In this document: positions 15,698 to 45,193 of the stretch, piece after piece
Position numbering within the stretch: position 1 is the first letter of the stretch
How the letters are laid out: every line of letters begins with the position of its first letter
Virus record (IMG/VR): IMGVR_UViG_3300044858_000223
Span: 1-53,355 of that record
Source of the DNA: a virus
Lineage: Duplodnaviria > Caudoviricetes
Length of the DNA: 53,355 nucleotides
Strand: one strand, 5' to 3'
Notes under the pieces: model-generated
Databases searched by the model: none
The model's input: only the letters and a program-made list of their open reading frames with translations
What the model was told of the DNA's origin: nothing
Translations under genes and position numbers: made by a program

Positions 15698-15875
15698 ATG
15701 GATCTTTCCATTTCAAGGCATGGAGGTTGGAGACTCGTTCTTCATCCCCACAGTTAGACCTGCGGCTTTGATTTACATCGTCGACTCTCGCGCCAAGGTT
15801 TATGGTATCAAGGTGAAAGCCTTTACCATGTCCAAGGAAGGACACCTTGGCGTGAGGGTTTGGCGCGTAGCCTAG
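15663..15875 (+). CDS. small conserved phage protein, possibly DNA-binding
   Basis: WIFPFQGMEVGDSFFIP...GVRVWRV family motif. Confidence 0.75.
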   Translation: MQNQNQSLTEPEWIFPFQGMEVGDSFFIPTVRPAALIYIVDSRAKVYGIKVKAFTMSKEGHLGVRVWRVA

Positions 15876-33269: not shown

Positions 33270-34127
33270 TTATTGTTCAGGCGCAACAACTATGAGTAGG
33301 CCGGGGCCGCCGGGGGCGTTTGGACTACTACCCTCACCGCCGCCACCGCCGCCACCGCCACCGAAATAATTAGACGAAAGCGGGGAAAACCTAATACCTG
33401 CGCCAGCACCGCCACCGCCGCCATAATTACCCCCGTTACCGCCAGAAGCGTTCGGTACGCTACCTCCGGGATTGTTGCCGGGACCTCCGCCACCGGCACC
33501 GCCTGTACCGACAAGTTTTCCTCCAGAAGCAGTAGAAGTACCGGTAGAACTGCCGCCGCCACCGCCGGGGCCACCAAGCGAAAACGGACTTGCGTCACCG
33601 CCACCGCCGCCGCCAGCGCCACCGCCGCATCCGGCACTACTAGGACTGCCGGGGCCTCCGTAACCGCCCTCAAGAAATCGATCTCCGCCGGGAGCGCCGC
33701 CGCCACCAGAGTGACTTCCGTAAGTCCCTGCTGCTGCACCAGCACCGCCGGGAGCACCAAATTCATTATTACTATTACTACCAGTACTTCCCCCTGCGAG
33801 AGTGAAAATAGTAGTTCCGCTTCTCGTTATGCTGGTCGTCCCGCCCGCACCACCAACTGAATAGTTAAGTGTTTCACCCGGAGTAACAGTAAGACTGTAT
33901 CCAGTTAGCTGACTGGCACCGCCACCGCCACCGCCACCGCCACTCTGATACGCAGCGCCGCCAACTGAATATCCGCCGGGACCTCCGCCACCGCAGCCCC
34001 AAACTTTGATGTATGTATATCCAGAAGGCACAGTAAAGGTGCCGCTAGTTGGTCCTCCAGTTGCCAGTAGCTGTACTTCAGGACTTTTGCCCTTTGCGGA
34101 CAAAATTAGCATTTGAACGCCGCTCAT
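33270..34127 (-). CDS. glycine-rich tail fibre / receptor-binding protein
   Basis: SGTFTVPSG...VWGCGGGG and poly-Gly tracts ending GGPGLLIVV. Confidence 0.8.
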   Translation of the reverse strand: MSGVQMLILSAKGKSPEVQLLATGGPTSGTFTVPSGYTYIKVWGCGGGGPGGYSVGGAAYQSGGGGGGGGASQLTGYSLTVTPGETLNYSVGGAGGTTSITRSGTTIFTLAGGSTGSNSNNEFGAPGGAGAAAGTYGSHSGGGGAPGGDRFLEGGYGGPGSPSSAGCGGGAGGGGGGDASPFSLGGPGGGGGSSTGTSTASGGKLVGTGGAGGGGPGNNPGGSVPNASGGNGGNYGGGGGAGAGIRFSPLSSNYFGGGGGGGGGEGSSPNAPGGPGLLIVVAPEQ

Positions 34128-34131
34128 TGTA

Positions 34132-35130
34132 TTAACTCAGATTTCCGCTAATGACACACAATGAAGGATTAATAAACAAAACTGTGGCAATACCGCGAGT
34201 AGCCAACGTCAAACTAGCGCGGTCGGCATTAGTGCCAGCTTGATATGCCGTTGTAATCGGGCAATTGATGCTGATATTGCCAGTCGTATCGTTGTAGATA
34301 GACACAGCGTTTCCGGCTACAAACGTATCATTCGGCACCGTAATACTGCCGCCAGAACCAACCGTAACAAACTCACCAATATCTGTAATGGCAAGCGTGT
34401 AGGCAGAAGTTTTAGCGGCACCTGCTGACGGGATGTTACGAAGATTTCCAACGCCGTCAGACGAAGTAGTAAACGTGCCGGTCGTGCCCGTAACAGTCGT
34501 GATGTTGGCACTTGCGCCTTGGAACTGCGTAGTAGCCTGAGCGCCCATGTTTGTGGCGCTGATCGTCGTACCCGTAACAGTTGTAATGTTGGCGCTTGCA
34601 CCTTGGAACTGAGTCGTCGATTGCGAACCCATGTTCGTGGCACTAAACGTAGTACCAGTCGCAGTCGTGATACTGGCTGACGTTGCATTCAACGTCGTAA
34701 CCGTAATGCTGCTTGGTACAGCCGTTAGATACGTCGTTGCTTCAACAACATCCGTACCGTTCGACACCAAGATAACTTTCTGCCCTGCCGTGACCGATAC
34801 ACCGGTCTGCCCAGTTACCTTCACCGTCACAGCACCCGAAGCGTTGTTGTAGATGAAGTACAGTTTCTTGTTGGCAGGAACTTCAAGTACCGTGCTGGCA
34901 CCGCCGGTTCCCGTCAGTTCAATAAACATGTTACGGGCAACGCCCGAAGAACCGTTCGGGATAGTGATGGTGGTTGTGGCACCTGTTGATACGGCTTGGG
35001 TGACGTAACCAGAGATAGCCTGCTCAATGAGCGTGCCAAGGTTCGTGTTAGTGGTGTTACCCCACGTACCGGCCTGATCGCCTGTGCCGATCAGTTCAAT
35101 AGCAAGGTTGGTGCTGAATGTGCTAGACAT
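34132..35130 (-). CDS. tail fibre protein
   Basis: MSSTFSTNLAIELIGTGDQAGTWGNTTNTNL attachment domain; Thr-rich repeats. Confidence 0.8.
   Translation of the reverse strand: MSSTFSTNLAIELIGTGDQAGTWGNTTNTNLGTLIEQAISGYVTQAVSTGATTTITIPNGSSGVARNMFIELTGTGGASTVLEVPANKKLYFIYNNASGAVTVKVTGQTGVSVTAGQKVILVSNGTDVVEATTYLTAVPSSITVTTLNATSASITTATGTTFSATNMGSQSTTQFQGASANITTVTGTTISATNMGAQATTQFQGASANITTVTGTTGTFTTSSDGVGNLRNIPSAGAAKTSAYTLAITDIGEFVTVGSGGSITVPNDTFVAGNAVSIYNDTTGNISINCPITTAYQAGTNADRASLTLATRGIATVLFINPSLCVISGNLS
34480..34680 (-). repeat. 84 bp (28 aa) tandem repeat, about 2.4 copies
   Basis: SAxITTxTGTTxSATNMGxQxTTQFQGA; CCTTGGAACTG recurs at 34517 and 34601. Confidence 0.85.
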
Positions 35131-35141
35131 TTTTAATTACC

Positions 35142-36029
35142 TCACGCGGCGATTTGTATCCAGTTCGCATTCTGGTTAGTGTTAATCAATCCCCATACAT
35201 TTACTGCGGGTGACTGCGATCCAATATTACCTGTCGCGGATACCCCAGTTACGATATATCTAGACTCAATCGTTACAGTGCCAGTCTGTCCTGTAGCCTC
35301 TACTCCCGTAACAGGATACTTGGAGAACTGTTCTGCGATGCCAAGTTCGCTAGTACCCGTAACGCCTGTTACCGAGAAAATACAATCAAGAACAAATGAA
35401 ACAGTGCCTATTTCGCCTGTGCCCTGTACACCGTCTTCGATGACAACAGCGGTGGCAACGATAACCTCGTCACCAAGTTCGCCAGTCGCCTCAAGCCCCG
35501 TAACAAGTTGAGTATGCCCAGAAATAACAAAAATAGTGCCTAGTTGTGTTGTACCAGCAAGCCCTGTAACAGACAAAATCTGCTCAGTAGATAGCGATAC
35601 AGTTCCCAATTCACCGGTAGCAGATACACCGTTTACCGGATAAACCGAGAATACTTCTACAGCACCAAGTTCAGTCGTTCCTACTACGCCGTCTTCAATA
35701 ACAATAGCGTCAGCAACAACAACTTCATCACTCAGAATGGCTTGGGCTTCAACGCCAACAGCAAGCACATCCGCATTGGCAATAACGACAACTGAACCAA
35801 GTTCACTCGTTGCTGATACGCCAGTAACTGAAAGTACTTGGTCATGAGAGACAAAAACCGTCCCTAGCTCACTCGTTCCAGTGAAGCGGTAGTAGGTTTC
35901 GCCCCAGCCTTCTTCGCCCCAGCCACTTGTTGAAGAACCAAAGCCACCAAGGACAATGGTTACATCAGTGACTGATCCCCAGCCTAGCTCACCCCAGCCA
36001 CGTAAACCCCAACCAATCGGGTCTGGCAC
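35142..36029 (-). CDS. repetitive beta-rich virion protein
   Basis: GWGxxGWG N-terminal motifs; repeated VTGVxATGELGTV units. Confidence 0.75.
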   Translation of the reverse strand: MPDPIGWGLRGWGELGWGSVTDVTIVLGGFGSSTSGWGEEGWGETYYRFTGTSELGTVFVSHDQVLSVTGVSATSELGSVVVIANADVLAVGVEAQAILSDEVVVADAIVIEDGVVGTTELGAVEVFSVYPVNGVSATGELGTVSLSTEQILSVTGLAGTTQLGTIFVISGHTQLVTGLEATGELGDEVIVATAVVIEDGVQGTGEIGTVSFVLDCIFSVTGVTGTSELGIAEQFSKYPVTGVEATGQTGTVTIESRYIVTGVSATGNIGSQSPAVNVWGLINTNQNANWIQIAA

Positions 36030-36042
36030 GGGAGTTCTCTAG

Positions 36043-36498
36043 TTAGGCGATACGAATAATGGCGGTCGAAGCAGCGGCAGCCGGGAACTGGATGGTGAAG
36101 TTACCAGCCGTCGAGGTCTTATCACCGCCGAACGCCAGAACCGCAACAGCCTTGTTACCCTGAGTCGCGTTATAGATCAGAGCGCCGTTTGCCGTGATCG
36201 TGGCCGAAACCCACGTGGTATCGTCGAAGTCCAAGAACGCCGTTGTACCGGTCGAAGTCGGAACCTGCGATACCGTGAGCGTGTTACCGCCCGCCGTGTA
36301 GTTCGTGCCAGACGACGAAACTTCATCAGAAGTTGAATATGCCGTGGTAGCGGCACCCAACGTAGCAGACGAAGTAAACAACGCAATCTTGAACACATCA
36401 GGAGCCGCAGAAGCGCGGATCACCGCCGAGCCGAACGCATGAATGCCGTTAAGGATTTCAACCTTAAACGACGTTGCCATTGCTTGTGTAATAGCCAT
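36043..36498 (-). CDS. virion structural protein
   Basis: MAITQAMATSFKVEIL...FKIALFTS...GALIYN...FGGDKTST...FTIQFP...AIIRIA. Confidence 0.8.
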   Translation of the reverse strand: MAITQAMATSFKVEILNGIHAFGSAVIRASAAPDVFKIALFTSSATLGAATTAYSTSDEVSSSGTNYTAGGNTLTVSQVPTSTGTTAFLDFDDTTWVSATITANGALIYNATQGNKAVAVLAFGGDKTSTAGNFTIQFPAAAASTAIIRIA

Positions 36499-36785
36499 CA
36501 GTCTTCTCCAATAAGTTTCGCTAAATCGTGATGCCCGTTTTGCGAGAGCTTTGCACGAATAGTCTTACGTTCAGACTCTTGCGCCTCTCGTAGGTATTTG
36601 ACCAGAGTTAATCTGATCTGCTCTTTGTACTCCCGAGCCTGCTGAGCAATCTCAGGAGCCGCCGAATCGCTAATATAAACGAACTTGTCTACCGCACGGT
36701 CGGCAATTTCTTCTGCCGTATACCCACGGTTATCGGTCGTGAAAATTTTCACAACACCCAAATCAACAACAGACATATTACTCAT
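36498..36785 (-). CDS. hypothetical protein
   Basis: TTDNRGYTAEEIA motif; operon packing. Confidence 0.75.
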   Translation of the reverse strand: MSNMSVVDLGVVKIFTTDNRGYTAEEIADRAVDKFVYISDSAAPEIAQQAREYKEQIRLTLVKYLREAQESERKTIRAKLSQNGHHDLAKLIGED

Positions 36786-37420
36786 GTCACTGCAATCCTA
36801 GCTTGGCCTGAACGATATGCGTCCTGACGATCCAAGCCATCGCCAAGGCGTTTGAGAAGCGCCAATGCTTCCTGATACTTCTGCTCGTAGTACTGCATCA
36901 TGTCCTGCTCACCCTTCAGGTACGTATAGGCTTCGCGCAGCGAGCCATACAACAGGACAGTTTCAAAGTTATCCCCAAGCCATGATGTACCGTAGTTCAC
37001 GATAGACACGGGATAGTAGTAATAATGCAGTTCCGCCGTATACGCGACATCCGGGGTAGGCCCAAGCAACATAGTCGCATCGTCAAAGATGGCGTAATAC
37101 TGGGGCTTGCCCGTGCTGTTCGGAGGCGGATACGCCGCACGGATAAAGTTCACATCTTTATTAATTAAGTACTCGTACTCGCCAGTCACCGGGTCAATCA
37201 CGGCCAACGAGAACGTCGATAGCCAATCATCTGGCAACTGAAAGTACGGGAACGTGTTGGTCATCGTCCCGGTCACATTCTTACGAATGGCCGGGATCTG
37301 AACGGAGTTATAAATCCGCTCTTCAGCTAACTGCACAAAAGTCGGGATATTAGCCACAAAGCTCTGCTCCGTGGACTCACAGTAATCCTGAATCAGTGTA
37401 GAAAGCTGACTGTAATTCAC
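36782..37420 (-). CDS. head-tail adaptor protein
   Basis: MNYSQL...IPTFVQLAEERI...GKPQYYA...LGPTPD...LLYGSL.EAY. Confidence 0.8.
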   Translation of the reverse strand: MNYSQLSTLIQDYCESTEQSFVANIPTFVQLAEERIYNSVQIPAIRKNVTGTMTNTFPYFQLPDDWLSTFSLAVIDPVTGEYEYLINKDVNFIRAAYPPPNSTGKPQYYAIFDDATMLLGPTPDVAYTAELHYYYYPVSIVNYGTSWLGDNFETVLLYGSLREAYTYLKGEQDMMQYYEQKYQEALALLKRLGDGLDRQDAYRSGQARIAVT

Positions 37421-37614
37421 GGAGACCAGCCCGACCGATACTTCATGTTGGTGTCAAGGTTGATCTGCGACACGAACTTCTTACCCTTGGTCGCAGCACC
37501 AGCACCCTTCATATCCATGTGGGTGACGCCCTTGTTCACATCCTTCTCTGGGTAGCCATTACGCCCCGTGGAGTCGGTGTTCGGCCTGATTTTGCCGGGA
37601 TTCAGTTCTTTCAT
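37417..37614 (-). CDS. small basic protein
   Basis: 65 aa; MKGAGAATKG motif. Confidence 0.7.
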   Translation of the reverse strand: MKELNPGKIRPNTDSTGRNGYPEKDVNKGVTHMDMKGAGAATKGKKFVSQINLDTNMKYRSGWSP

Positions 37615-37619
37615 AGCAA

Positions 37620-37802
37620 TTACCTCGGGCCCGAAGAGCCACGCATCGGCTTGCGCTGGTTCATCACCTTCGCCATGCCACGACCGTACTTCTTCATGTC
37701 GCTGTTGGTCTTACCACCAGCACGCATACCCTTGACGCGATTCGGGCCGTGAGCCTTGCTCGCCGGGAGTTCAGCGTGTTTTTCCAAATCTGACTTAGCC
37801 AT
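37620..37802 (-). CDS. small basic protein
   Basis: 60 aa; MRAGGKTN..MKKYGRGMAK. Confidence 0.7.
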   Translation of the reverse strand: MAKSDLEKHAELPASKAHGPNRVKGMRAGGKTNSDMKKYGRGMAKVMNQRKPMRGSSGPR

Positions 37803-37811
37803 CTCAATCTC

Positions 37812-38189
37812 CTAGGTCGTTACGACCGTTACAGTTCCAACCAAACCTGCCGGAGCAAGGTCGTTTGGAGTCAATCCTGCATCGTCGGCTCTAGCTCCAC
37901 CTACCGGAGCCCAGCCCCATTGTATCTGACGACTGCCATTTGCACCGTCATTACCCACCGCAAAGTAGCTTGTATCCGGTCTTGGGTTCCGCAGTGCCTG
38001 CGGGTCGTCCACGGGATATAAACCAAGTGATAACTGCGGCTGATCCGGCTCCCAGCACTCCGGACATACCAAGATGTTTACGTTCTTGGTTTTGATCACT
38101 ATAGACTTCAACTGGCGCAGCTTGTACTGAAAGCCACACCGGTCGCACATAGCGATAGAGTGCTTGCCACTTGCAAACCTGTTCGGCAT
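37812..38189 (-). CDS. zinc-ribbon virion-module protein
   Basis: FASGK...CDRCGF...VCPECWEPDQPQL...DPQALRNPRPD. Confidence 0.8.
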   Translation of the reverse strand: MPNRFASGKHSIAMCDRCGFQYKLRQLKSIVIKTKNVNILVCPECWEPDQPQLSLGLYPVDDPQALRNPRPDTSYFAVGNDGANGSRQIQWGWAPVGGARADDAGLTPNDLAPAGLVGTVTVVTT

Positions 38190-38914
38190 TAGTAACCACC
38201 CAAGAAGCTCTCGCGTGGGACAAACCGAACCGCCGCCTTCTCACGGTCCTCGCCAGCGGCCAAATCCCAAGCCTCGTCATACTGGGCTTTCAGAACTTGC
38301 GTGCGCTCCAGAGCACCCGGAATCTTCATCGACATCAGATACGCCAGACCCGCCACCATACAGGGCAGGAAACGATAGGGAATATCTTGTCCATTCGGTC
38401 CCGTACCGGGGTCGAGCATACGACGCAGGCGGGTATAGACCAGCGTCCAAGTCGTGCTGTTATCCGGCTTCGGCCATACAGTGTATTGAGGATACTGCAC
38501 TACGCCAGCCGCGCTCGTCGCACCCGTACGGCGATTAATCCAAATCTGAATCGGGCGACCCGTCGCGTTCTTATTGGGAATCGACAGGTAGGTACTGGAC
38601 GAAATACGCGAGATGTTGATGTCCTGCTGGTTCGTGCCAGAACCCGTGCGGATTACGTGGTCAAGCAGGTCCACCGTATCTACTGGTAGATCGTATGTAC
38701 CTTGATTATAGGTCAGTACCTGCTGACCCTCCTCAAGCGTCCAGAGGTTAATACCTCGGTTCGCCCAGTCCATCAGGAGTAGAGCAAGACTGCGCTTAGC
38801 CGTACGGAAGTCGTAGCCCGTACGCAGTTCAGCACCGCAACGCTCGAAAGCCTCTTCGATAATCGTACTGAGGTCGAGGTTGAAGTCTGTAGTGGCGCTA
38901 GTTCTATCTACCAT
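38189..38914 (-). CDS. head-to-tail connector / tail tubular protein A-like
   Basis: IIEEAFERCG...WANRGINLW...IPNK...GRP...RFLPCMVAGLAY. Confidence 0.8.
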   Translation of the reverse strand: MVDRTSATTDFNLDLSTIIEEAFERCGAELRTGYDFRTAKRSLALLLMDWANRGINLWTLEEGQQVLTYNQGTYDLPVDTVDLLDHVIRTGSGTNQQDINISRISSSTYLSIPNKNATGRPIQIWINRRTGATSAAGVVQYPQYTVWPKPDNSTTWTLVYTRLRRMLDPGTGPNGQDIPYRFLPCMVAGLAYLMSMKIPGALERTQVLKAQYDEAWDLAAGEDREKAAVRFVPRESFLGGY

Positions 38915-39327
38915 TACTTCCTCGCTGTGACGACATCATCACCCTTGGTGACGGTCACGTGATCGCCCTCAACATCGACCCGCATCGGCATCTCTTTACG
39001 ATCCAATCGGTCAAGTTTAGCGATGAGATCCTTTATAACCTCAAACTCAGGCTTTACCTCTACCTTCTCATTTGCCCCGGCGATGTTATTCAGCATCGAA
39101 ATCAAGGCGGTCAGAGAGGCTCCGAGCAAGCCCATCACAGCAGCGATTTTCTCATTATCCAACTGAAGGCTAGAAACAACGCCAATCACCACGATCAACG
39201 TGATGTAGAAAAGGCCGTACTTACCAATAGATTTACCGGCAACTTCTTTAGCGGGCGACGATCCCTCAATACGCTTAGCTTCCGCCATAGCGTCTAATCG
39301 GGCTTTGAGAAAATCTCCTAGCGTCAC
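38914..39327 (-). CDS. two-TM membrane protein
   Basis: two hydrophobic helices (YGLFYITLIVVIGVV; IAAVMGLLGASLTALISML). Confidence 0.7.
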   Translation of the reverse strand: MTLGDFLKARLDAMAEAKRIEGSSPAKEVAGKSIGKYGLFYITLIVVIGVVSSLQLDNEKIAAVMGLLGASLTALISMLNNIAGANEKVEVKPEFEVIKDLIAKLDRLDRKEMPMRVDVEGDHVTVTKGDDVVTARK

Positions 39328-39500
39328 TTCTTCAGACCCTTCAAGGTTTGAGCAAGTCTAGCACGTTGGCCCATCTTACCGGGCTTCTTAGCAGCCGCAG
39401 CAAGTTTCTTGGCCGGGATCTTTTCGCCAGCCTTAACCCCCAAAGACGCACGAAGCGCACCGGGCTTCTTGATCGCTTTTTGAATCCATTTCTCAGACAT
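39324..39500 (-). CDS. 58 aa Lys/Ala-rich basic protein (below the ORF-track cutoff)
   Basis: MSEKWIQKAIKKPGALRASLGVKAGEKIPAKKLAAAAKKPGKMGQRARLAQTLKGLKK; GTGA overlap with the next gene. Confidence 0.85.
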   Translation of the reverse strand: MSEKWIQKAIKKPGALRASLGVKAGEKIPAKKLAAAAKKPGKMGQRARLAQTLKGLKK

Positions 39501-39509
39501 CTAATTCCC

Positions 39510-39989
39510 CTAAAAATAATTTACGTTTATTGTAAATCTGTACTTTTTATCAGTGCATTGAACACTACGGTGTTTTACTAATGGAGCAAACAACAAAATA
39601 CGATTCTCTACTGACTCGATTTTTGTCCCATCCTCCATTTCAGTATAACCATTATTAGTGTTTACATAATAAACCGCGCCTTTATGTGGGTAATCGTTAT
39701 CAACGTGCCAGCCATTTTCTACTTGTCTACCAACATTTAAATATAAATTCCCTTTAACTCTGATACAGGCTTTAACAGAAATTTTATTGAGTATAGGTAC
39801 TATGCTTGTATAGAGCCCACTCATTGGTTGGTGGTCATTGTAAAAAATATGCGTAAAGTAAAACCCATCATCTACGTCTTTTTGTGAAACAGAATCGTTG
39901 TAATACCAAGGAATACCTCTCACCATTAAAGATTTAATCTGCTCAAATTCATTTTCTGGCAAAAAATTATCTATAACTTCAAGATCCAT
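39510..39989 (-). CDS. 2OG-Fe(II) oxygenase
   Basis: VIDNFL, WHVD, YYVNTNNGYT, ENRILLF...KHRS, RFTINVNY; visibly AT-rich. Confidence 0.85.
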   Translation of the reverse strand: MDLEVIDNFLPENEFEQIKSLMVRGIPWYYNDSVSQKDVDDGFYFTHIFYNDHQPMSGLYTSIVPILNKISVKACIRVKGNLYLNVGRQVENGWHVDNDYPHKGAVYYVNTNNGYTEMEDGTKIESVENRILLFAPLVKHRSVQCTDKKYRFTINVNYF

Positions 39990-39994
39990 AGAAA

Positions 39995-40240
39995 TTACAT
40001 ACCACGTTTTCTGTACGGTTTTACTTTTTCTTTAACGGCTTTCGGCTGCGGGACGAACTGCTTGCCTTGGGACTTACCTTTTCGTTTGGCGGCAGTGGTT
40101 CGGGCGTACTCAGCAGGGCTGAGAGCCTTGATCGCAGCCTCTGGAAGATACCTTTCGCCCGTGTCAGAAGATCGTTTACCACTCTTCGTTCTCCATTTCT
40201 GGTCGCCCCAAGCCTTTAAGGACTGCTGCGGGGACTTCAT
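39995..40240 (-). CDS. small basic protein (DUF5872-like)
   Basis: QQSLKAW..QKWRTKSGK.S..TGERYLPE.AIK.LS..EYA.TT.AKR. Confidence 0.8.
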   Translation of the reverse strand: MKSPQQSLKAWGDQKWRTKSGKRSSDTGERYLPEAAIKALSPAEYARTTAAKRKGKSQGKQFVPQPKAVKEKVKPYRKRGM

Positions 40241-40518
40241 TTGTTGCGCTCTTCCATCAACTTGACCCGCACCTGCAAGTCATGGATGTCTTCCATCAGA
40301 TCGTCCTTGAGTTCCTGTCGCTTGGCCGCGCTCAACGGGCTGTCGGTCGGTACACCGTCTTCGGTAATAAGGATCGGAACCTTCGACTCAATAGCAATCA
40401 AGCGGTTCTGAAACGAGGTAATCTCGCCCAGCAGCCAAGCCACAGCAGCAAGCAAGACCGGGAACAACATGTCCACGACCTTCTCCATGCTAAAGCTAGA
40501 CTTACCCTCGGTATCCAC
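40237..40518 (-). CDS. single-TM protein
   Basis: LFPVLLAAVAWLL followed by a coiled coil. Confidence 0.65.
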   Translation of the reverse strand: MDTEGKSSFSMEKVVDMLFPVLLAAVAWLLGEITSFQNRLIAIESKVPILITEDGVPTDSPLSAAKRQELKDDLMEDIHDLQVRVKLMEERNK

Positions 40519-40801
40519 CGCCCTTCTCCTTGTACCGCTTGGCTAACAACTGCGCCTTACGCGCTGACCACTGCCCTGCACCGGTGCCCTGCGTTGCCGA
40601 AGCCTTGATCGACTCAAACAACTTCTTACGCATACTCGGCTTGGTGTAGTTGCCAGCCTGATTGACCTTGCTCTTGGCTTCGCCGCCCTTGGCATGGCGG
40701 ATTGGCTCACCAGTACCCTCAACGGGTTTATTGTCCCCACGGCGCTTTGCACGGGGGACTTTCTTCGGGCTAATAGCACCCATTCCGCGAGAAGCCATCA
40801 T
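40502..40801 (-). CDS. small basic protein
   Basis: MASRGMGAI; HAKGG; NYTKP.MRK.LF..IKA...GQWSARKAQLLA..YK.KGGGY. Confidence 0.8.
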   Translation of the reverse strand: MMASRGMGAISPKKVPRAKRRGDNKPVEGTGEPIRHAKGGEAKSKVNQAGNYTKPSMRKKLFESIKASATQGTGAGQWSARKAQLLAKRYKEKGGGYRG

Positions 40802-41799
40802 CGTACGAACCTCCCACGGCCACGGCCTTTCTGAGCAATGCCGTAGCCGCGAACACGTTCTTCTTTAACGCGACCACCACGGCGCATGGCAATCTCTACT
40901 GGACGGCCATCTTCGCCAATAAAAGCATTACCGATTCGGCTAGGAAGTTTGTTCAAAGCGGCTTTCAAGCCTTCTTTGATACCTTCTTTCTCACGAACCT
41001 TTTTGTAATCTTCTATGGCTTCTTTGGCTACAGCCTTGGCTACACCAGACTTGCCTTCTTTCTTTTCTATGTCTTTGTATCGCTTAATTTCAGGCGCACG
41101 CACTGAGTTATAAAAGTCATAAATGTCGCTGACTTTTGTTCTACCCTTGTCTTCTCGAAGATTGGCTCTGCCTACAGTCTGTGGCATGGCTTGTTCTTTC
41201 GAGAATTGCTCTACTTTATTGATAAGCAATTCGTTGGGGTAATCGTCGTAAGTGATGTAACTACGACCAGCTTTTTTGGCTTTATCGGCAGCGGACTTCA
41301 ACTGAGCAAGTTCTTCCTCAGTAAAGTTCTTCTCCGTAATTGGACGCTCACTGCCTGCCAACGTCGTTAAGAACGTGCGCTGCTGAGCCGGAACCCCCGC
41401 TGCACGCATTCCACGCTCTACAAGGCTCAAAGCTCCTTCACCAAGACGCCGACCAAATGACTCTTCCTGTTTCGGAGTAAGAGGCTTAGTAACGGTTTTA
41501 ACTTCTGCCTTGGGAGCAGGCTTAACGGCGGGTTTAGCGGTAACCGGTTTAGGCTTCGGAAGCTCTGCTTCGGTCTTGGGCTTCTTAGTTGAAGTCGTGT
41601 ACTTCTCACCGCGCCAAGTAAAGGTCTTGCCTTCGCCAAGCTCTTTACGCTTGGCTTTAAACGCTTCGCTGAACGACATATCGTCAATCGTGCGATTCTG
41701 CGGCGCACGACGGGCATAACTGGCCGAGTCAGGGCTAAATACGCCTAGCCCCTCTTCCTCGACCAAGTCCCCTTCAGCGAAACGTCTACGGCGCTTCAT
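40798..41799 (-). CDS. basic virion-module protein
   Basis: SFSEAFKAKRKELGEGKTFTWRGEKYTT module; C-terminal MRRGG...RGYGIAQKGRGRG. Confidence 0.75.
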   Translation of the reverse strand: MKRRRRFAEGDLVEEEGLGVFSPDSASYARRAPQNRTIDDMSFSEAFKAKRKELGEGKTFTWRGEKYTTSTKKPKTEAELPKPKPVTAKPAVKPAPKAEVKTVTKPLTPKQEESFGRRLGEGALSLVERGMRAAGVPAQQRTFLTTLAGSERPITEKNFTEEELAQLKSAADKAKKAGRSYITYDDYPNELLINKVEQFSKEQAMPQTVGRANLREDKGRTKVSDIYDFYNSVRAPEIKRYKDIEKKEGKSGVAKAVAKEAIEDYKKVREKEGIKEGLKAALNKLPSRIGNAFIGEDGRPVEIAMRRGGRVKEERVRGYGIAQKGRGRGRFVR

Positions 41800-41801
41800 G
41801 G

Positions 41802-42059
41802 TTACACCATTTTACCGCGAGTCTTACCCTTAATAGCGATGCCATCAGCACGCTTGGAAGCAGAACTACGTGACTTCACTTTGCCGCCTTTCTTTAGGCC
41901 GATAGTGTCGGCCTCGGGGCTCTTCTGGAAGTTCTCGTAAGCATCGCGCATTTTCTTAGCCATGTTCTGATCTTTAACAGCCTGCATAGCAGCAGCCTGC
42001 TTCTGACCACGAGGGCTAGTAGGCCCAAGGGCTACGCGTGTTTTTGGACCGCTGCTCAT
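41802..42059 (-). CDS. small basic protein
   Basis: LKKGGKV..SASKRADGIAIKGKTRGKMV. Confidence 0.75.
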   Translation of the reverse strand: MSSGPKTRVALGPTSPRGQKQAAAMQAVKDQNMAKKMRDAYENFQKSPEADTIGLKKGGKVKSRSSASKRADGIAIKGKTRGKMV

Positions 42060-42394
42060 GAACAGGCTCCTCCCATACGCATCTTGACCATCTTGCCCTT
42101 GGTCTTGCCCTTGCTGGCAATGCCGTCAGCGCGGCTTGAAGCAGAACCACCGTTGGACATCTTTTTGACACCCTTCTTCATGCCCGCTTCTTTCTCTTCG
42201 TGACGGATCATGGACTTCGGAGCGCCTTTCTTTTTCATAAAGGCCACTTCCTTTTTCATCATTTCTTTCGACTCGGCTCTACCGCCCTTCTTCATGCCAG
42301 ATGTAGCCATCATTGCACGACCGGCACGATCAGCCATGTCCCCACGCATAGGCATTGCACGACCCATGCGATCTTTCATATTTCGGTTCATCAT
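42056..42394 (-). CDS. small Met/Lys-rich basic protein
   Basis: MKKGG, MSNGGSASSRADGIASKGKTKGKMV, MRMGG. Confidence 0.75.
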   Translation of the reverse strand: MMNRNMKDRMGRAMPMRGDMADRAGRAMMATSGMKKGGRAESKEMMKKEVAFMKKKGAPKSMIRHEEKEAGMKKGVKKMSNGGSASSRADGIASKGKTKGKMVKMRMGGACS

Positions 42395-42411
42395 TTCAGT
42401 TCGCTCCTAAA

Positions 42412-42648
42412 TTATTTAGCGGACTTAATCAGTTGGTCGATTTTCTGATCCAACTTCTCAAGCCGGTCGATTAGTTGCCGCATATCTTCTCGGACTTCGG
42501 CGCGGGTGATGTGATCACGCGCTACTTCTTCCCGAGTTTTATTTAGCAAAATGCCGAGTCTTTGTAGCTCGGCAAACTTTTCCTTAACCACAAAACCTAA
42601 AACCGCCACGATTCCCGTCAGAACCATGTTCCAAACAAGCATTTCCAT
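42412..42648 (-). CDS. single-TM coiled-coil protein
   Basis: N-terminal hydrophobic helix; ILLNKTREEVARD...LEKLDQKID. Confidence 0.75.
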   Translation of the reverse strand: MEMLVWNMVLTGIVAVLGFVVKEKFAELQRLGILLNKTREEVARDHITRAEVREDMRQLIDRLEKLDQKIDQLIKSAK

Positions 42649-42651
42649 GAC

Positions 42652-42906
42652 TCAGCACTTCCATGCACGTAGAGACTTGTTGATACGGGAATTGGGGTCA
42701 TTCGCAGTCTTGGCGCTCGTCAGTTTCTTCTTCATCCCAGACATCCGGGCACAGAAGGATTTCTTACGAGGACCGCCTTCGGGCTGCGGAGCCTTGAGTC
42801 CCGGCTTGCCGGGGTTTGCCCGGTTGTAGGAAGCCCTGCCTTTAGCATTTAAACCGCCAGCGGGGTTTTTGCCTTCCTTACGTTGCCAAGCCGGTGACTT
42901 AGCCAT
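42652..42906 (-). CDS. small basic protein (DUF6321-like)
   Basis: AWQRKEGKNPAGGLNAKGRASYN...RKKSFCARMSGMK...DPNSRINKSLRAWKC. Confidence 0.85.
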   Translation of the reverse strand: MAKSPAWQRKEGKNPAGGLNAKGRASYNRANPGKPGLKAPQPEGGPRKKSFCARMSGMKKKLTSAKTANDPNSRINKSLRAWKC

Positions 42907-43204
42907 AAATGACCATCGTCGAGATTACGGCTGACGGGACGATGTAGATGCTCGTTTGGAAGAGCAGTCCTTCACCCGGCATCAGGATGTAATCCGGTGC
43001 GGTAGAACTTGCCTTGGTATTGACCGCGATTTTGACCGGGCCGCTTACGCCACCGTCACGAAAAGTCACTGTACCCGCACCCGAATCGGGAACGATGTAG
43101 ATCGCCTTCACGCGAGAGCGGCCAATAACGAGGCTATTTTGATCCAGCAGGTCGCCAGCATTTGTGGCGACCTTACTAGCTAAGACATCTGTTTGCATAC
43201 CCAT
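42899..43204 (-). CDS. small beta-rich virion protein
   Basis: MQTDV...RVKAIY...FRDGG...MPGEGLLF. Confidence 0.75.
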   Translation of the reverse strand: MGMQTDVLASKVATNAGDLLDQNSLVIGRSRVKAIYIVPDSGAGTVTFRDGGVSGPVKIAVNTKASSTAPDYILMPGEGLLFQTSIYIVPSAVISTMVIYG

Positions 43205-43228
43205 TCTCCGTCTCCTGTAATGGATGAA

Positions 43229-43244
43229 GGGGGCTTACGCCCCC
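43229..43244 (-). promoter_or_regulatory. GC hairpin with GNRA loop and no U-tract (mRNA stabilising or processing element)
   Basis: minus strand GGGGGC-GTAA-GCCCCC between two genes. Confidence 0.5.
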
Positions 43245-43253
43245 CACGAAATC

Positions 43254-43445
43254 TTACGGAGTCAGGCTGCTGTACAGAGCGATGTACTTAGTGGTTCCGC
43301 CGATGCTCACCGGGATGTAACCGGCTTGAGCCGAAACCGAACCCGTGGCAACGCCAGCGGTGATGACGGTCGTACCAATTACGAGCGTGCTGGACTGGAA
43401 GCCGTTTTGCGAAACAACCGGGCCGGAAAAAGTAGTAGTAGCCAT
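43254..43445 (-). CDS. small virion protein
   Basis: MATTTFSGPVVSQNGF N-terminus; GAGGAT SD. Confidence 0.8.
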   Translation of the reverse strand: MATTTFSGPVVSQNGFQSSTLVIGTTVITAGVATGSVSAQAGYIPVSIGGTTKYIALYSSLTP

Positions 43446-43449
43446 TTCA

Positions 43450-43530
43450 AATCCTCACATGCGAGTTGGTTTATCAGTCTGCATGTCGTCAGTCGGGTCT
43501 GTCTGATAAACCTGTTAATCCCGATGAACG
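43450..43530 (-). ncRNA. candidate cis-regulatory double-pseudoknot RNA leader
   Basis: three interleaved complementary pairs: 43520-24/43493-97, 43503-12/43468-77 (10 bp perfect), 43481-86/43457-62; the last abuts the SD at 43451-56. Confidence 0.65.
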
Positions 43531-43543
43531 ACTATATAGCATC

Positions 43544-43583
43544 AAAAAAGAGGGGCTACAAGCATTGCTACTTGTAACCCCCC
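43544..43583 (-). terminator. Rho-independent terminator after the major capsid gene
   Basis: minus strand GGGGGTTACAAG-tagcaatg-CTTGTAGCCCC-TCTTTTTT. Confidence 0.85.
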
Positions 43584-43608
43584 AATCTCTCTCAGGTCGC
43601 CATCAAAC

Positions 43609-44517
43609 TTAGGACGCGCCCGGCGAACCGAACATGCCCAGCGGGTCCGACCAACCGAACGAGTAACGCTCGCGGCTCTTATACCGCACGTTGCCGGTGT
43701 CGAAATCGCCGTCCATGCTGTTTTGCAGCGGGGTGCGAACGAAGTGCTTCATGCCGTTCGGAACGTCGGTCGTCAAGAACCAAGCGTTCGTGTCGGTCAA
43801 GAAGTGGTTCACGGTGTAGCCACCGGGGATCGAACCCATCGCCTTGAGAGCGTTGATGTCGTTGTCAGCGGTCGCAACACGGAGTTCCGTGTCGAGGAGG
43901 CGCTTGGCAGTGAACATCAAAGCCGGGGGAACGATGAGCTTACCGGGCTTCGCCGCGATCAAGAGACCACGTTCGTCGGTCCAACCAGCGATCTGAATGA
44001 CAGCAGCTTCCAACGAGGTTTCGTTGAGATCCGATGCCGTCAGACGGTTGCTGTTGGTGCCACCCGAAACAAGCGGATGCGAGGCCGAGAACAACGGCTG
44101 ACCGTCACCGCCCGTGTAGGACGAGGAGAAGCCATTGTTAAGGACCGAGGCCGCCTTGACCTGCTTCGTGTACGCCATAGCGCGAGCGAGCGCCTTGGTA
44201 TATCGCTTGGAGAGCGAGTCGTACAGGTTGTCTTCAACCGCTTCTTCCGTGATGGAGAAGCCGAGAGCGATGGTCTCGTGGTTGTAACGAGCCGTCCAAG
44301 CTTCCTGCGCGTTGTCGTACGCAATGGCGGCACCCTCGGCCTTGACCGGGGCAGCGGAGAATCCGCTCAGCTTCGTCTCTTCTTCAAAAGAACGCTCGGA
44401 GGTCTCAGTCTCGTAGATCTCCTTGTGCTCTTCACCATAGGTCTTGTACTCAAGGCCGAACAGGGCGTTCAAACCCGGAAGGAGCTCTTTGAGTAATTGT
44501 GCGCGTGAAATAGCCAT
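43609..44517 (-). CDS. major capsid protein (Mu gpT-like family)
   Basis: MAISRAQLLKELLPGLNALFGLEY...TEEAVEDNLY...DERGL...RYKSRERYSFGWSDP; strong codon bias; terminator downstream. Confidence 0.93.
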   Translation of the reverse strand: MAISRAQLLKELLPGLNALFGLEYKTYGEEHKEIYETETSERSFEEETKLSGFSAAPVKAEGAAIAYDNAQEAWTARYNHETIALGFSITEEAVEDNLYDSLSKRYTKALARAMAYTKQVKAASVLNNGFSSSYTGGDGQPLFSASHPLVSGGTNSNRLTASDLNETSLEAAVIQIAGWTDERGLLIAAKPGKLIVPPALMFTAKRLLDTELRVATADNDINALKAMGSIPGGYTVNHFLTDTNAWFLTTDVPNGMKHFVRTPLQNSMDGDFDTGNVRYKSRERYSFGWSDPLGMFGSPGAS

Positions 44518-44533
44518 GTCTTAGAACTCCCTA

Positions 44534-45193
44534 TTACAGACCGGTCGGGTTGTTGTAAGCGTGACCACCTTCGATGACACCCGAGTTCACGTACGGAGCG
44601 TTGAACTTCACGATGACTTCTGGGTAGTACACGGTACCGCTTACGTCGAACGCCGTGTCCGGCACAACGTCAATGATACGCATCGGCAGCGACAGCGTAG
44701 TGCTGGCAGACGACACGAGGACACCCTGCTGGGAATCGTTCGTCGTCGTATTCAGCGTGTTCGCCACCAAAGCCACGTTCAGACCAACGTCCGAGTAGGT
44801 GAAGCCGGTCGAGGTGGAAACCACCGTCGAGGACGACACACCAGCCACTTGGAACAGGGTGTTCGGATCTTCCACCACGTACGCAGTAATGTACGTGCCA
44901 GACTTCACCGAGGTGCCCGAAATCCAAGCCTGCGAGTAGGTCGGCTGACCCGTCACAGAGGACACAAACGAACAGCCCAAAAACACACCCGCGAAACCGC
45001 GAGTGGGAGCCGTGCTTTCTTCGGTCGTCACAGCCACCGTGCCGTCATTCACGAACTTCAGCGGGTCACCGTAACCAATGCTCGACGCATTGGAAGCGAT
45101 TCGGCGCTGACGGGTCGCTCCGGCAAACGGCAGTCCACCGATCAGGTTGATCGGCTTCAAGCCATACGGCTTGCTAACAGTAGGATAAGCCAT
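44534..45193 (-). CDS. capsid-associated (decoration/cement-like) protein
   Basis: PYGLKP...GVFLGC...DPNTLFQV; immediately upstream of the capsid gene, similar codon bias. Confidence 0.7.
   Translation of the reverse strand: MAYPTVSKPYGLKPINLIGGLPFAGATRQRRIASNASSIGYGDPLKFVNDGTVAVTTEESTAPTRGFAGVFLGCSFVSSVTGQPTYSQAWISGTSVKSGTYITAYVVEDPNTLFQVAGVSSSTVVSTSTGFTYSDVGLNVALVANTLNTTTNDSQQGVLVSSASTTLSLPMRIIDVVPDTAFDVSGTVYYPEVIVKFNAPYVNSGVIEGGHAYNNPTGL

Follow-up and report, generated by a model that had tools for sequence, protein, structure and literature searches.

Structured 5′ leaders are known regulators. In the E. coli alpha operon, ribosomal protein S4 binds a double-pseudoknot leader (Rfam Alpha_RBS), gp32 of phage T4 acts on the pseudoknot in its own leader, and SAM-II and preQ1-II/III are small translational riboswitches whose 3′ strand includes the Shine-Dalgarno (SD) sequence. 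HK022 put and EAR are cis-acting antitermination RNAs. HDV-like ribozymes cut at their own 5′ edge, and small ribozymes are common near phage structural genes. Pseudoknots of the K-type (kissing-hairpin, ABACBC) occur, for example, in enterovirus 3′ UTRs, and the xrRNAs of flaviviruses and plant viruses draw the 5′ end of the RNA into a pseudoknotted core.

Here we describe an RNA element of ~75 nt on the minus strand of a 53,355-nt stretch of Caudoviricetes DNA (IMG/VR record IMGVR_UViG_3300044858_000223; hereafter the window). The element forms the leader of a short gene, termed gene X (Table 1), and its helices a-c span 43524-43457, inside the range 43450-43530 singled out in a preliminary description of this sequence. 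Like the Alpha_RBS and T4 gene 32 leaders, it places a pseudoknot of the 5′ leader at or over the ribosome-binding site; unlike them, it matches no model, has another topology, begins its fold at the predicted 5′ end of the transcript and perhaps lacks a partner protein. With put and EAR it shares the position of a promoter-proximal structured RNA (~70-120 nt) heading a long operon, and EAR is pseudoknotted as well. However, no SD is attached to put or EAR, put is a pair of plain stem-loops, and the window shows no evident need for antitermination downstream of the element. The drawing of the 5′ end into a pseudoknotted core, which could mechanically resist a 5′-to-3′ enzyme, recalls the xrRNAs; in contrast to these, the element sits in a bacterial context and shows no sequence or model similarity to them.

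Table 1 Features of the element and its surroundings in the window.
Feature	Positions	Strand	Remarks
Intrinsic terminator of the capsid gene	43550..43583	-	15-pair stem, then UUUUUU (43549-43544)
Extended -10-like box TGCTATATA	43533..43541	-	hexamer TATATA at 43538-43533, 8 nt before helix a
Helix a, 5′ strand UCGGG	43520..43524	-	pairs with a′ CCCGA (43497-43493)
Joiner J1 AUUAACA	43513..43519	-	between the 5′ strands of helices a and b
Helix b, 5′ strand GGUUUAUCAG	43503..43512	-	pairs with b′ (43477-43468)
Helix d, 5′ strand CAG	43499..43501	-	pairs with CUG (43492-43490)
Loop of hairpin d, six bases	43493..43498	-	variable A 43498 plus a′ CCCGA
Helix d, 3′ strand CUG	43490..43492	-	followed by A 43489, C 43488, G 43487
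Helix c, 5′ strand ACAUGC	43481..43486	-	pairs with c′ GCAUGU (43462-43457)
AGA after the 5′ strand of helix c	43478..43480	-	last A (43478) invariant
Helix b, 3′ strand CUGAUAAACC	43468..43477	-	partner of GGUUUAUCAG
Helix e, 5′ strand CUC	43463..43465	-	pairs with GAG (43456-43454)
c′ GCAUGU	43457..43462	-	forms the whole six-base loop of hairpin e
Shine-Dalgarno GAGGA	43452..43456	-	bases 43456-43454 are the 3′ strand of helix e
Gene X	43254..43445	-	63 aa, starts MATTTFSGPV
G+C-rich tetraloop hairpin after gene X	43229..43245	-	followed by UUCAUCC, no proper U run

The preliminary description had proposed three complementary pairs in the order a-b-a′-c-b′-c′. All three are present on the minus strand where it placed them, every pair in helices a, b and c of the window is Watson-Crick, and the order follows from the sequence; covariation adds two short helices, d and e, and the pseudoknot is in fact triply crossed. 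Three segments formerly taken for plain joiners turn out to be paired in part: CAG 43501-43499 within ACAGA pairs with CUG 43492-43490 within CUGACG (helix d), and CUC 43465-43463 within AACUC pairs with GAG 43456-43454 (helix e). With all five helices the strand order reads a-b-d-a′-d′-c-b′-e-c′-e′, a fold in which five helices cross three times and two hairpin loops of six bases each bind one strand. Hairpin d sits inside the 10-bp helix b, and its loop holds a′, the partner of the 5′-terminal strand a; strand c likewise lies inside helix b, and its partner c′ is the loop of hairpin e, just outside helix b. Five covarying helices are thereby packed into ~75 nt, one captured strand being the 5′ end of the message and the hairpin stem that presents the other including half of the ribosome-binding site. 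Full pairing of a six-base hairpin loop with a partner is known from the TAR-TAR* kissing complex.

We know of no described RNA with this strand order, and a literature search turned up none. The preliminary description could not assign the element to a named family, nor did covariance searches with Rfam 15 (4227 models): the whole window gave no match at gathering scores; the interval 43200-43800 gave four matches at E ≤ 10, of 12.7-15.8 bits against cut-offs of 40-96; and the loci of twelve relatives (52,182 bases) gave two at E ≤ 0.1, neither on the element. Helices a, b and c share the strand order A-B-A′-C-B′-C′ with K-type pseudoknots, from which the element differs in that its loop-loop helix has 10 bp and extra 3-bp hairpins, d and e, frame a′ and c′. 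HDV-like ribozymes resemble it in their nested double pseudoknot, their size and a first helix at the 5′ edge. Their order P1-P2-P3-P3′-P1′-P4-P2′ is nonetheless not that of the element, where a′ lies inside the loop of the third helix (d) whereas the HDV-like P1′ follows the P3 hairpin, and no HDV-type Rfam model matches. We rejected a hammerhead. The hammerhead core has an invariant CUGANGA; CUGACGA in the window is helix strand d′ plus ACGA, its first three bases vary (d′ in relatives is CAG, CGG, CCG, UGG, GAG, GGG, CCU, AGG or CUA), and no hammerhead model of Rfam matches. We could match the fold to nothing described, and the element is small enough for crystallography, NMR or scaffolded cryo-EM. 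A 2023 survey of structured RNAs in IMG/VR lists 10,006 unnamed candidates (Comput Struct Biotechnol J, PMC10690425); its passages on capsid genes and pseudoknots concern candidates upstream of the major capsid protein, not a leader of gene X. The element may be among the unnamed candidates, given the same source collection and its abundance.

Pairing of a, b and c in one sequence alone is within chance; comparison makes the pairs real. A brute-force search for the arrangement a-b-a′-c-b′-c′ (G-U allowed) found at least 21 pairs in 5 of 82 mononucleotide shuffles of 300-nt stretches, and on the window itself it preferred a false, terminator-based arrangement of 24 pairs. The minimum-energy fold recovers only helix b and the upstream terminator (z = -2.43).

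Each helix was checked by an alignment or test in which it had not been fitted. Alignment A4 (73 rows, 69 distinct) was built with a covariance model, R1, fitted to helices a and c only, and alignment A5 (75 rows, 70 distinct) with a model fitted to helices b, d and e only; b, d and e were then read on A4, c on A5, and a free of any alignment. These model-based alignments were used in place of MAFFT, which on its own misplaced helix a where J1 differs by one base and c′ in one class. Among relatives J1 is mostly 4-9 nt long, variable, and A/U- or C-rich.

On A4, two-sided changes occurred in 21 of 21 pairs of helices a, b and c, and 89.4% of their cells were paired, as compared to 21-38% with partners slid by 1-3 columns; the covariation score of 0.542 (≤0.10 for slid partners) was reached by none of 500 shuffles. 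Helix b, outside model R1, was 80-94.5% paired on A4, with both sides changing in all ten pairs, and 95-97% on A5. The preliminary description had named missing covariation in helices a and c as what would refute it, and both helices covary. For c, 99.0% of cells on A5 were paired, with two-sided changes in 6/6 pairs. For a, a complement was sought in the 12-nt stretch beginning 3 nt before the model match: 68 of 70 distinct sequences held a perfect 5/5 complement of their own a′, while cross-type trials among the 12 a′ types reached 5/5 in 2 of 770. The lower value of helix a on A4 and A5 (only ~88%) arises because the first base of a is dropped in the class with a 7-nt J1.

Helix d was 94.6% paired on A4, its middle pair being AU 31, UA 23, CG 5 and GC 1 times, and relatives carry ten different versions of it, all Watson-Crick. 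Helix e, with the types CUU/AAG, CUC/GAG and GUG/CAC, was 84.7% paired on A4 and 91.8% on A5; a mutual-information scan flagged the flanking columns. Of the five, e has the weakest support. The proposed pairs rank highest in an unbiased mutual-information scan. Between the helices, A 43502 is nearly invariant, A 43489 is invariant (62 rows) and C 43488 is C in 59/62. A conserved small ORF across the element is excluded, as joiner lengths differ by 1-2 nt among relatives.

The capsid gene ends in an intrinsic terminator that lies outside the element and sets its upstream boundary. It is the only terminator-like site on the minus strand in 42800-44800; the element itself does not behave as one in the terminator scan, which flags 43583-43550 alone, and leads instead into an SD and AUG. 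Given the extended -10-like box, transcription would start at about 43526-43525, ~0-3 nt from helix a. Upstream of 72 related elements, TATATT/TATAAA-type boxes recur, scored 8-10 nt from helix a in 51 of them; the end of the -10 box is mostly 7-10 nt from helix a, the promoter is of the sigma-70 type, and a TTGACA-like -35 (at least 5/6) stands at 16-18 nt spacing in 19/72. The element fills the whole leader between this predicted promoter and the start of gene X, whose AUG at 43445 lies downstream of the SD (43456-43452) and, among relatives, 1-11 nt past the model match. One locus, L279, has a hairpin without a U run 5 nt upstream of the element and no recognisable promoter, and L203, L259, L262 and L011 are similar; at such loci the element may be internal to a longer transcript.

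In the late region, the minus strand holds only two intergenic extended -10 candidates, 52130 and 43541. A transcript from the element must span 43445 to about 15872, ~27 kb of late genes, and no strong terminator was found downstream of the element on the minus strand in 33500-43445. That the element follows the capsid gene, as first described, is correct for the window and fails as a defining trait: in some relatives, GIY-YIG or endonuclease VII (homing-endonuclease) genes are inserted after the capsid gene, and the element stays with gene X and the promoter.

Gene X follows the element in every locus with a readable start. Its relatives measure about 57-236 aa and share an N-terminal motif of ~10 residues ahead of a variable remainder. 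Depositors annotated homologues as ‘cement protein’ (DSL-LC04) and ‘minor capsid protein’ (Pag-Yong1), labels that make gene X a candidate head protein of cement or decoration type; the main text of the DSL-LC04 paper contains no discussion of a ‘cement protein’. Sequence searches with gene X found no PDB relative, and it falls in no named Atlas cluster. Cement proteins can be required in the same number as capsid proteins: phage GP4 is reported to carry 540 copies of each.

The last helix had been described as touching the ribosome-binding site. The contact is there, and ‘touching’ understates it: the fold contains the first three SD bases. In the main leader classes e′ supplies the 5′ half of the SD; in two minor classes it is c′ that overlaps the SD or coincides with it, and in the GUG/CAC class the SD lies 2-5 nt further on, outside the fold. 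Downstream of gene X, many relatives have GGGGCUUCGGCCCC at the place of the window's G+C-rich hairpin; most of these hairpins are without a good U run, and in several relatives the hairpin is missing.

We tentatively read the element as a cis-acting 5′ leader whose single fold joins the 5′ end of the mRNA to the ribosome site, setting message survival and translation, an explanation that falls a little short of an even chance. The element would account for the entire untranslated leader of a late phage message that encodes a head protein of the cement or decoration type. Since the two nested halves, b+d+e and a+c, share no bases and have similar computed energies in the window (-14.1 and -11.3 kcal/mol), their joint formation is the simplest reading, and all five helices would then exist at once. 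The 5′ end, base-paired ~0-3 nt from the presumed start, would hinder pyrophosphate removal, RNase E entry and 5′ exonuclease. The ribosome site would sit on the rim of a rigid knot and extend partly into it, and the rate of 30S binding would be set by the stability of that knot rather than by chance pairing with neighbouring sequence. The message would then live long and yield a fixed, tuned output of a protein required in amounts like those of the capsid protein.

Stems at the 5′ terminus, a few nucleotides from the end, stabilise E. coli mRNAs. The whole-leader position, the placement of a helix at the 5′ end and the inclusion of half the SD in helix e would fit a role in translation or stability, and the G+C-rich hairpin right after gene X would leave the message of many relatives structured at both ends. 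If the element blocks decay as a 5′ knot or serves as a module that sets translation, it would offer a compact, host-independent part for expression control and a new case of phages balancing their head-protein amounts.

A simple hairpin at the 5′ end would be protection enough, and it does not account for so elaborate a fold or for the invariant unpaired bases A 43502, A 43489, C 43488 and A 43478, which point to a specific partner or chemistry; likewise, an exact 18-base core kept at 35-42% capsid identity is more conservation than a generic stabiliser should need. The element might therefore represent a new class of compact, triply crossed pseudoknot that acts by its own chemistry or through universal host machinery, not a phage protein: a ribozyme cutting at the 5′ edge, an xrRNA-like ‘cap’, or a binder of the ribosome or RNA polymerase. 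The retained core and the invariant junction bases would fit such an activity, which we consider unlikely; a catalytic or ligand-binding element would be a new RNA class.

A protein-bound translational operator, on which surplus head protein or a host protein locks e and c′ over the ribosome site and represses gene X, is distinctly doubtful. The leader is structured at or over the ribosome-binding site (e′ lies in the SD, and c′ overlaps it in two minority classes), invariant unpaired bases mark the helix junctions, the context suggests a gene X product needed in fixed ratio to capsid protein, and S4 and gp32 set the precedent. Against this, leader classes and gene X classes are mixed among relatives and gene X keeps just its ~10 N-terminal residues over that range of lengths, which makes it unlikely that the RNA and the gene X protein co-evolve as a pair; neither gene X nor the gene after it yielded an RNA-binding domain.

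Processive antitermination of the put or Bacillus EAR kind would have the nascent knot bind RNA polymerase for read-through of the post-gene-X hairpin and the ~27 kb beyond. The element does stand at the very start of the transcript from 43445 to about 15872, with 52130 as the only other -10 candidate, many relatives carry a terminator-like G+C hairpin after gene X, and a core kept across distant capsids fits a universal partner such as RNA polymerase. The chance is nevertheless small: the fold is welded to an SD and start codon that an antiterminator does not need, the hairpins to be read through mostly lack a good U run or are absent, and the only strong minus-strand terminator of the window lies upstream of the element.

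Equally improbable is a two-state switch in which b+d+e and a+c are alternative folds, toggling for example during transcription. Their similar energies would allow it, and covariation cannot separate simultaneous from alternating helices; yet two sets without a common base do not force exclusion, and the display of a′ and c′ in the loops of d and e is a layout for capture, not competition.

A ribozyme or processing signal that cuts, or has a cut made, at or near the element's own 5′ edge, parting the capsid message with its terminal hairpin from the gene X message and leaving a protected 5′ end, is very unlikely. The compact multi-pseudoknot with few invariant unpaired bases, the conservation of its core whatever the capsid divergence, and L279, with its U-less hairpin 5 nt upstream and no promoter, speak for it. 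The search with Rfam 15 matched no ribozyme model, however, the strand order is unlike that of HDV-like ribozymes, the hammerhead-like CUGACGA is not conserved, and in most loci a promoter directly upstream leaves nothing to cut off. Least probable of all is a riboswitch whose small molecule would stabilise the knot at the helix junctions so that e and c′ keep the ribosome site shut (or open), since, for all its SAM-II- or preQ1-II/III-like size and pseudoknot style, its invariant junction bases and the involvement of the SD, no Rfam riboswitch family matches, the gene under control encodes a structural head protein and has no link to metabolism, and one leader class has its SD outside the fold.

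With respect to distribution, the element is kept in well over a hundred related environmental phage sequences, with one copy per genome and on the sense strand throughout. A search by capsid protein returned at least 601 related stretches and a search by the 18-base core pattern at least 120 IMG/VR stretches. In 71 of 81 loci of capsid relatives the covariance model found a single copy, which invariably lay on the capsid strand, and a second model found the element in all 80 IMG/VR loci retrieved by core pattern (80/80). The phages in which the exact core accompanies capsid proteins just 35-42% identical to that of the window are L203, L279 and L259. A blastn search of the element against 50,697 phage records gave chance-level matches alone (E = 4). 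Model R1 with filters off detected it in DSL-LC04, a metagenome-assembled phage, at 44.6 bits, and not in Pag-Yong1, Alcaligenes phage QDWS535 or Roseobacter phage CRP-902; directly after the Pag-Yong1 capsid stop there is a weak match of 6.4 bits.

The 18-base pattern also occurs in 120 stretches of bacterial genome contigs, where matches are mostly chance: R1 recognised real elements in 7 of the 80 examined. All seven lie on metagenome-bin contigs. One contig of relatives from the RNA-labelled run X5 ends at 43517, 7 nt inside the element; this is an assembled contig and is not counted as evidence. Many of the IMG/VR records that carry the element come from freshwater and lake samples.

Sequence comparison confirmed that the pseudoknotted RNA leader behind the major capsid gene is a real and abundant element without a catalogued family, and extended its three helices to five. 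All three complementary pairings read in the preliminary description (helices a, b and c, in the order a-b-a'-c-b'-c', where a' denotes the 3' strand of a) are in the window, every pair being Watson-Crick. Taken as a single sequence, the element shows no significance beyond chance. When this arrangement was sought by brute force, at least 21 pairs turned up in 5 of 82 shuffles of 300 nt, and within the window the search preferred a false arrangement on the terminator over the element; the minimum-energy fold of the region recovered only b of the three helices.

An IMG/VR search with the capsid protein returned at least 601 related stretches, of which the best 80 were taken. The a-b-a'-c-b'-c' layout is common to many relatives in the DNA after their capsid stops, with differing helix sequences. 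A covariance model of relatives, as proposed in the preliminary description, could be built: R1, from 17 sequences with a and c alone marked as paired, gave a single match in the window and likewise at 71 of 81 loci, on the capsid strand every time (an extra weak match in L052, E = 0.24, was taken as chance). The window's genome carries one copy. Among the ten R1-negative loci, five had less than 700 nt of DNA past the capsid gene; R1 found no element in 1.4–3 kb past the capsid gene in L008, L032, L058, L062 and phage Pag-Yong1. A second sample came from an IMG/VR scan for an 18-base core pattern (at least 120 stretches); all 80 stretches fetched were matched by a model of the nested helices b, d and e (R2), built from A4, the R1 alignment.

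A4 has 69 distinct rows and was fitted to a and c alone. On it, each of the 21 pairs in helices a, b and c changed on both sides, 89.4% of cells were paired versus 21–38% with partners slid, and the covariation score was 0.542 versus at most 0.10. None of 500 shuffles reached the observed cells paired, cells changed on both sides or covariation score; the observed pair count and pair-type count were reached by 5 and 2 shuffles, respectively. Because b lies outside R1, its 80–94.5% pairing on A4 is an independent result. Helix c, not part of R2, was 99.0% paired on the R2 alignment (A5, 70 distinct rows), its six pairs all changing on both sides in 15–33 rows each. Where joiner J1 has an additional base, the first base of a is lost from both alignments, and a was therefore tested free of alignment: in a 12-nt stretch starting 3 nt before the model match, 68 of 70 distinct sequences were complementary to their own a' at all five bases, and only 2 of 770 comparisons across the twelve a' types were equally good. 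Covariation in a and c, on which the preliminary description had made its fold depend, is present in A4, A5 and the alignment-free test.

The three-helix topology proved incomplete once the joiners were read. Three bases flanking a' on either side are complementary in every class and form helix d (CAG/CUG, CUG/CAG, CGG/CCG, CCG/CGG, UAG/CUA, CCA/UGG, AGG/CCU, CUC/GAG, CCC/GGG, CCU/AGG). It was 94.6% paired on A4, an alignment fitted without it (middle pair AU 31, UA 23, CG 5, GC 1), and 99.5% on A5. A mutual-information scan with average-product correction ranked the proposed pairs top and also flagged two columns flanking c', part of a 3-bp helix e (CUU/AAG, CUC/GAG or GUG/CAC). This helix was 84.7% paired on A4, again not fitted to it, and 91.8% on A5; among parsed sequences it is complete in most, partial in about a dozen and missing in about six, and is the least secure of the five. 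In the two common forms the 3' strand of e makes up the beginning of the Shine-Dalgarno sequence (SD), whose conservation therefore accounts for part of the signal; selection of e as a helix is best supported by the GUG/CAC class, with its SD further downstream.

The strands follow one another as a - J1 - b - A - d - N - a' - d' - AC(G/U) - c - (A)GA - b' - J5 - e - c' - e'(SD) - AUG, J5 being a further joiner. Helix d is nested within b and e lies outside it; the loop of d, inside b, pairs with strand a from outside it, whereas the partner of the loop of e, outside b, is strand c from inside. The fold would follow a rough two-fold logic, with two small hairpins of six-base loops each capturing one single strand. 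Full pairing of six-base loops is known from kissing complexes. Several unpaired bases are nearly invariant: the A that follows b, the AC that follows d' and the final A ahead of b'. The window's nested half (b, d, e) has a computed energy of -14.1 kcal/mol and the other (a, c) of -11.3, with no shared bases.

Features of the element and its surroundings in the window
Feature	Position	Strand	Remark
Terminase		minus	Pfam matches
846-aa ORF		minus	place of annotated portal gene in related phage Pag-Yong1; no Pfam match in window
GroES-like protein		minus	head-gene block
Scaffold-like protein		minus	head-gene block
Major capsid protein	44517-43609	minus	302 aa
Intrinsic terminator	43583-43550	minus	strong, with UUUUUU; after capsid stop
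Promoter-like box	43541-43533	minus	TGCTATATA; eight bases before element
Helix a	43524-43520 with 43497-43493	minus	all Watson-Crick
Helix b	43512-43503 with 43477-43468	minus	all Watson-Crick
Helix c	43486-43481 with 43462-43457	minus	all Watson-Crick
GAGGA	43456-43452	minus	next after c'
AUG of gene X	43445	minus	
Hairpin GGGGGGC-GUAA-GCCCCC, then UUCAUCC	43229-43245	minus	between gene X and next gene
Small genes, SU10-type adaptors, large tail genes		minus	same block

The preliminary description could name no family, and covariance-model searches against Rfam 15 assigned none: the whole window gave no match, the local region around the element nothing near threshold, and twelve diverse relatives no match on the element. 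Full-text literature on phage leaders, pseudoknots, structured RNAs and late-gene antitermination yielded no description of it. It may already be present, as an unnamed candidate, among the 10,006 structured RNAs predicted from IMG/VR in a 2023 catalogue (PMC10690425), whose passages on capsid and pseudoknot make no mention of it. Resemblance to the hammerhead heptamer is an accident of d', HDV-like ribozymes differ in strand order, a terminator scan ruled out a terminator, and a small ORF was rejected because joiner lengths differ by 1–2 nt.

The window's record (53,355 bases, estimated 84% complete in IMG/VR) has its head-gene block on the minus strand. By capsid DNA, its closest named relatives are Planktothrix/Synechococcus phages of the Pag-Yong1 group (72% identity), followed by lake phage DSL-LC04 (66%). 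A 2250-aa ORF (15872-22624, minus strand) may encode a large virion or ejection protein; its single Pfam match, an IclR-type helix-turn-helix, has a whole-protein E of 7.5e-6, its one stretch alone falling below pass.

After the capsid stop follow the terminator, the TGCTATATA box and the element. Related loci carry sigma-70-type promoters upstream of helix a, many reading TTGACA, 17 nt, then TATATT or TATAAA; the promoter adjoining the capsid terminator has an extended -10 in place of a -35. By simple scoring, 51 of 72 loci had a -10 box ending 8–10 nt ahead of helix a, the remainder being mostly register ambiguities of that scoring, and a -35 matching at 5 or more of 6 positions was present in 19 of 72. 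Usual promoter spacing would place the transcript start 0–3 nt before helix a. Capsid terminator and next promoter overlap (43533-43583, minus strand), the extended -10 box directly following the U run, so that transcription would halt and resume within ~25 nt; the overlap recurs in many relatives, e.g. ...CCCCTTTTCTTTTGGTGTATATTG... No promoter was found at L279, where a hairpin without U run lies 5 nt upstream of the element, and no clear promoter box precedes it in L203, L259, L262 and L011. The RNA runs available, all in the form of contigs, yielded nothing on transcript ends. An RNA-library contig (run X5, record 26; 619 bases) ends at window 43517, 7 nt into the element and close to the predicted start; as the lone contig of a relative it carries no weight as evidence.

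The gene led by the element (gene X; 43254-43445, minus strand, 63 aa in the window) starts 1–11 nt past the model match in relatives. All copies begin M-[A/G/S]-x-[S/T]-T-x-x-G-P-[V/W/I/L] or with the variant MALSTTQSIW, and lengths range from ~57 to 236 aa, with ~10 N-terminal residues kept and unrelated remainders. Its product resembles a modular protein of the head surface in which a constant anchor carries an outer part that can be exchanged. DSL-LC04 carries a homologue annotated 'cement protein', Pag-Yong1 one annotated 'minor capsid protein'; neither a PDB sequence search nor Atlas clusters nor the main text of the DSL-LC04 paper gave independent support for these labels. Many relatives have a G+C-rich tetraloop hairpin behind gene X, its U run usually poor (loop GUAA in the window, GGGGCUUCGGCCCC in many relatives), then an SD and a conserved 'M-x-MQTDV' gene; the hairpin might serve as a leaky terminator, stabilise the 3' end or mark a site of processing.

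At least 20 relatives carry inserted genes between capsid terminator and element. Element and promoter stay with gene X despite these insertions, and the element therefore belongs to gene X, not to the capsid gene; the earlier placement 'after the capsid gene' holds for position in the window, not for linkage. Leader sequence classes are mixed with gene X classes, and the identical 18-base core follows capsid genes only 35–42% identical to the window's (L203, L279, L259). Free-standing homing-endonuclease genes lie between capsid stop and element in L006, L008, L010, L032, L056, L059, L078 and others. Among eight inserted genes scanned, GIY-YIG domains occurred in five (E 1e-5 or better; two with NUMOD3; a weak LEM-3-type GIY-YIG match in one more) and endonuclease VII in one, and two had no domain match. 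The element's highly conserved DNA could be the target site of these enzymes.

Any function of the element can only be inferred. We tentatively favour, at somewhat less than an even chance, a cis-acting leader that would couple 5'-end protection with controlled ribosome access for a head protein whose required quantity is large and fixed, because the element would fill the whole leader of the gene X message, pair the first message bases into its core, protecting the 5' end, and enclose half the SD within its final stem, controlling ribosome access. Its main weakness is a fold more elaborate and conserved than this job needs, which keeps rivals alive. An operator locked by a bound protein is the foremost of these, though unlikely; a switch between two states is less probable again, as is, to the same degree, processive antitermination at the head of the ~27-kb late transcript. 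Self-cleavage or directed processing we regard as more doubtful still, and a riboswitch as the least plausible.

In Pag-Yong1 (L081 3904-4010), the model search did not find the element in the leader of the homologous gene. This leader contains CCCGACUGACGG, resembling a'-d'-ACG of the window, and a hairpin loop (CCGUCUCC) complementary to its own SD region (GGAGACGG); these features may belong to a pseudoknot of another kind, or a degenerate one, in the equivalent position. The 142-nt leader of the marine Roseobacter phage CRP-902 (L325 2620-2761) has no R1 match and carries a terminator and repeated GACAG/CUGUC motifs; gene order is the same, and gene X begins MATSTFSGPI. In the variant at L203 (1173-1243, minus strand of the locus), behind a capsid gene sharing just 35% identity with that of the window, GGGCA/UGCCC takes the place of helix a in a shifted register and J1 measures 15 nt.
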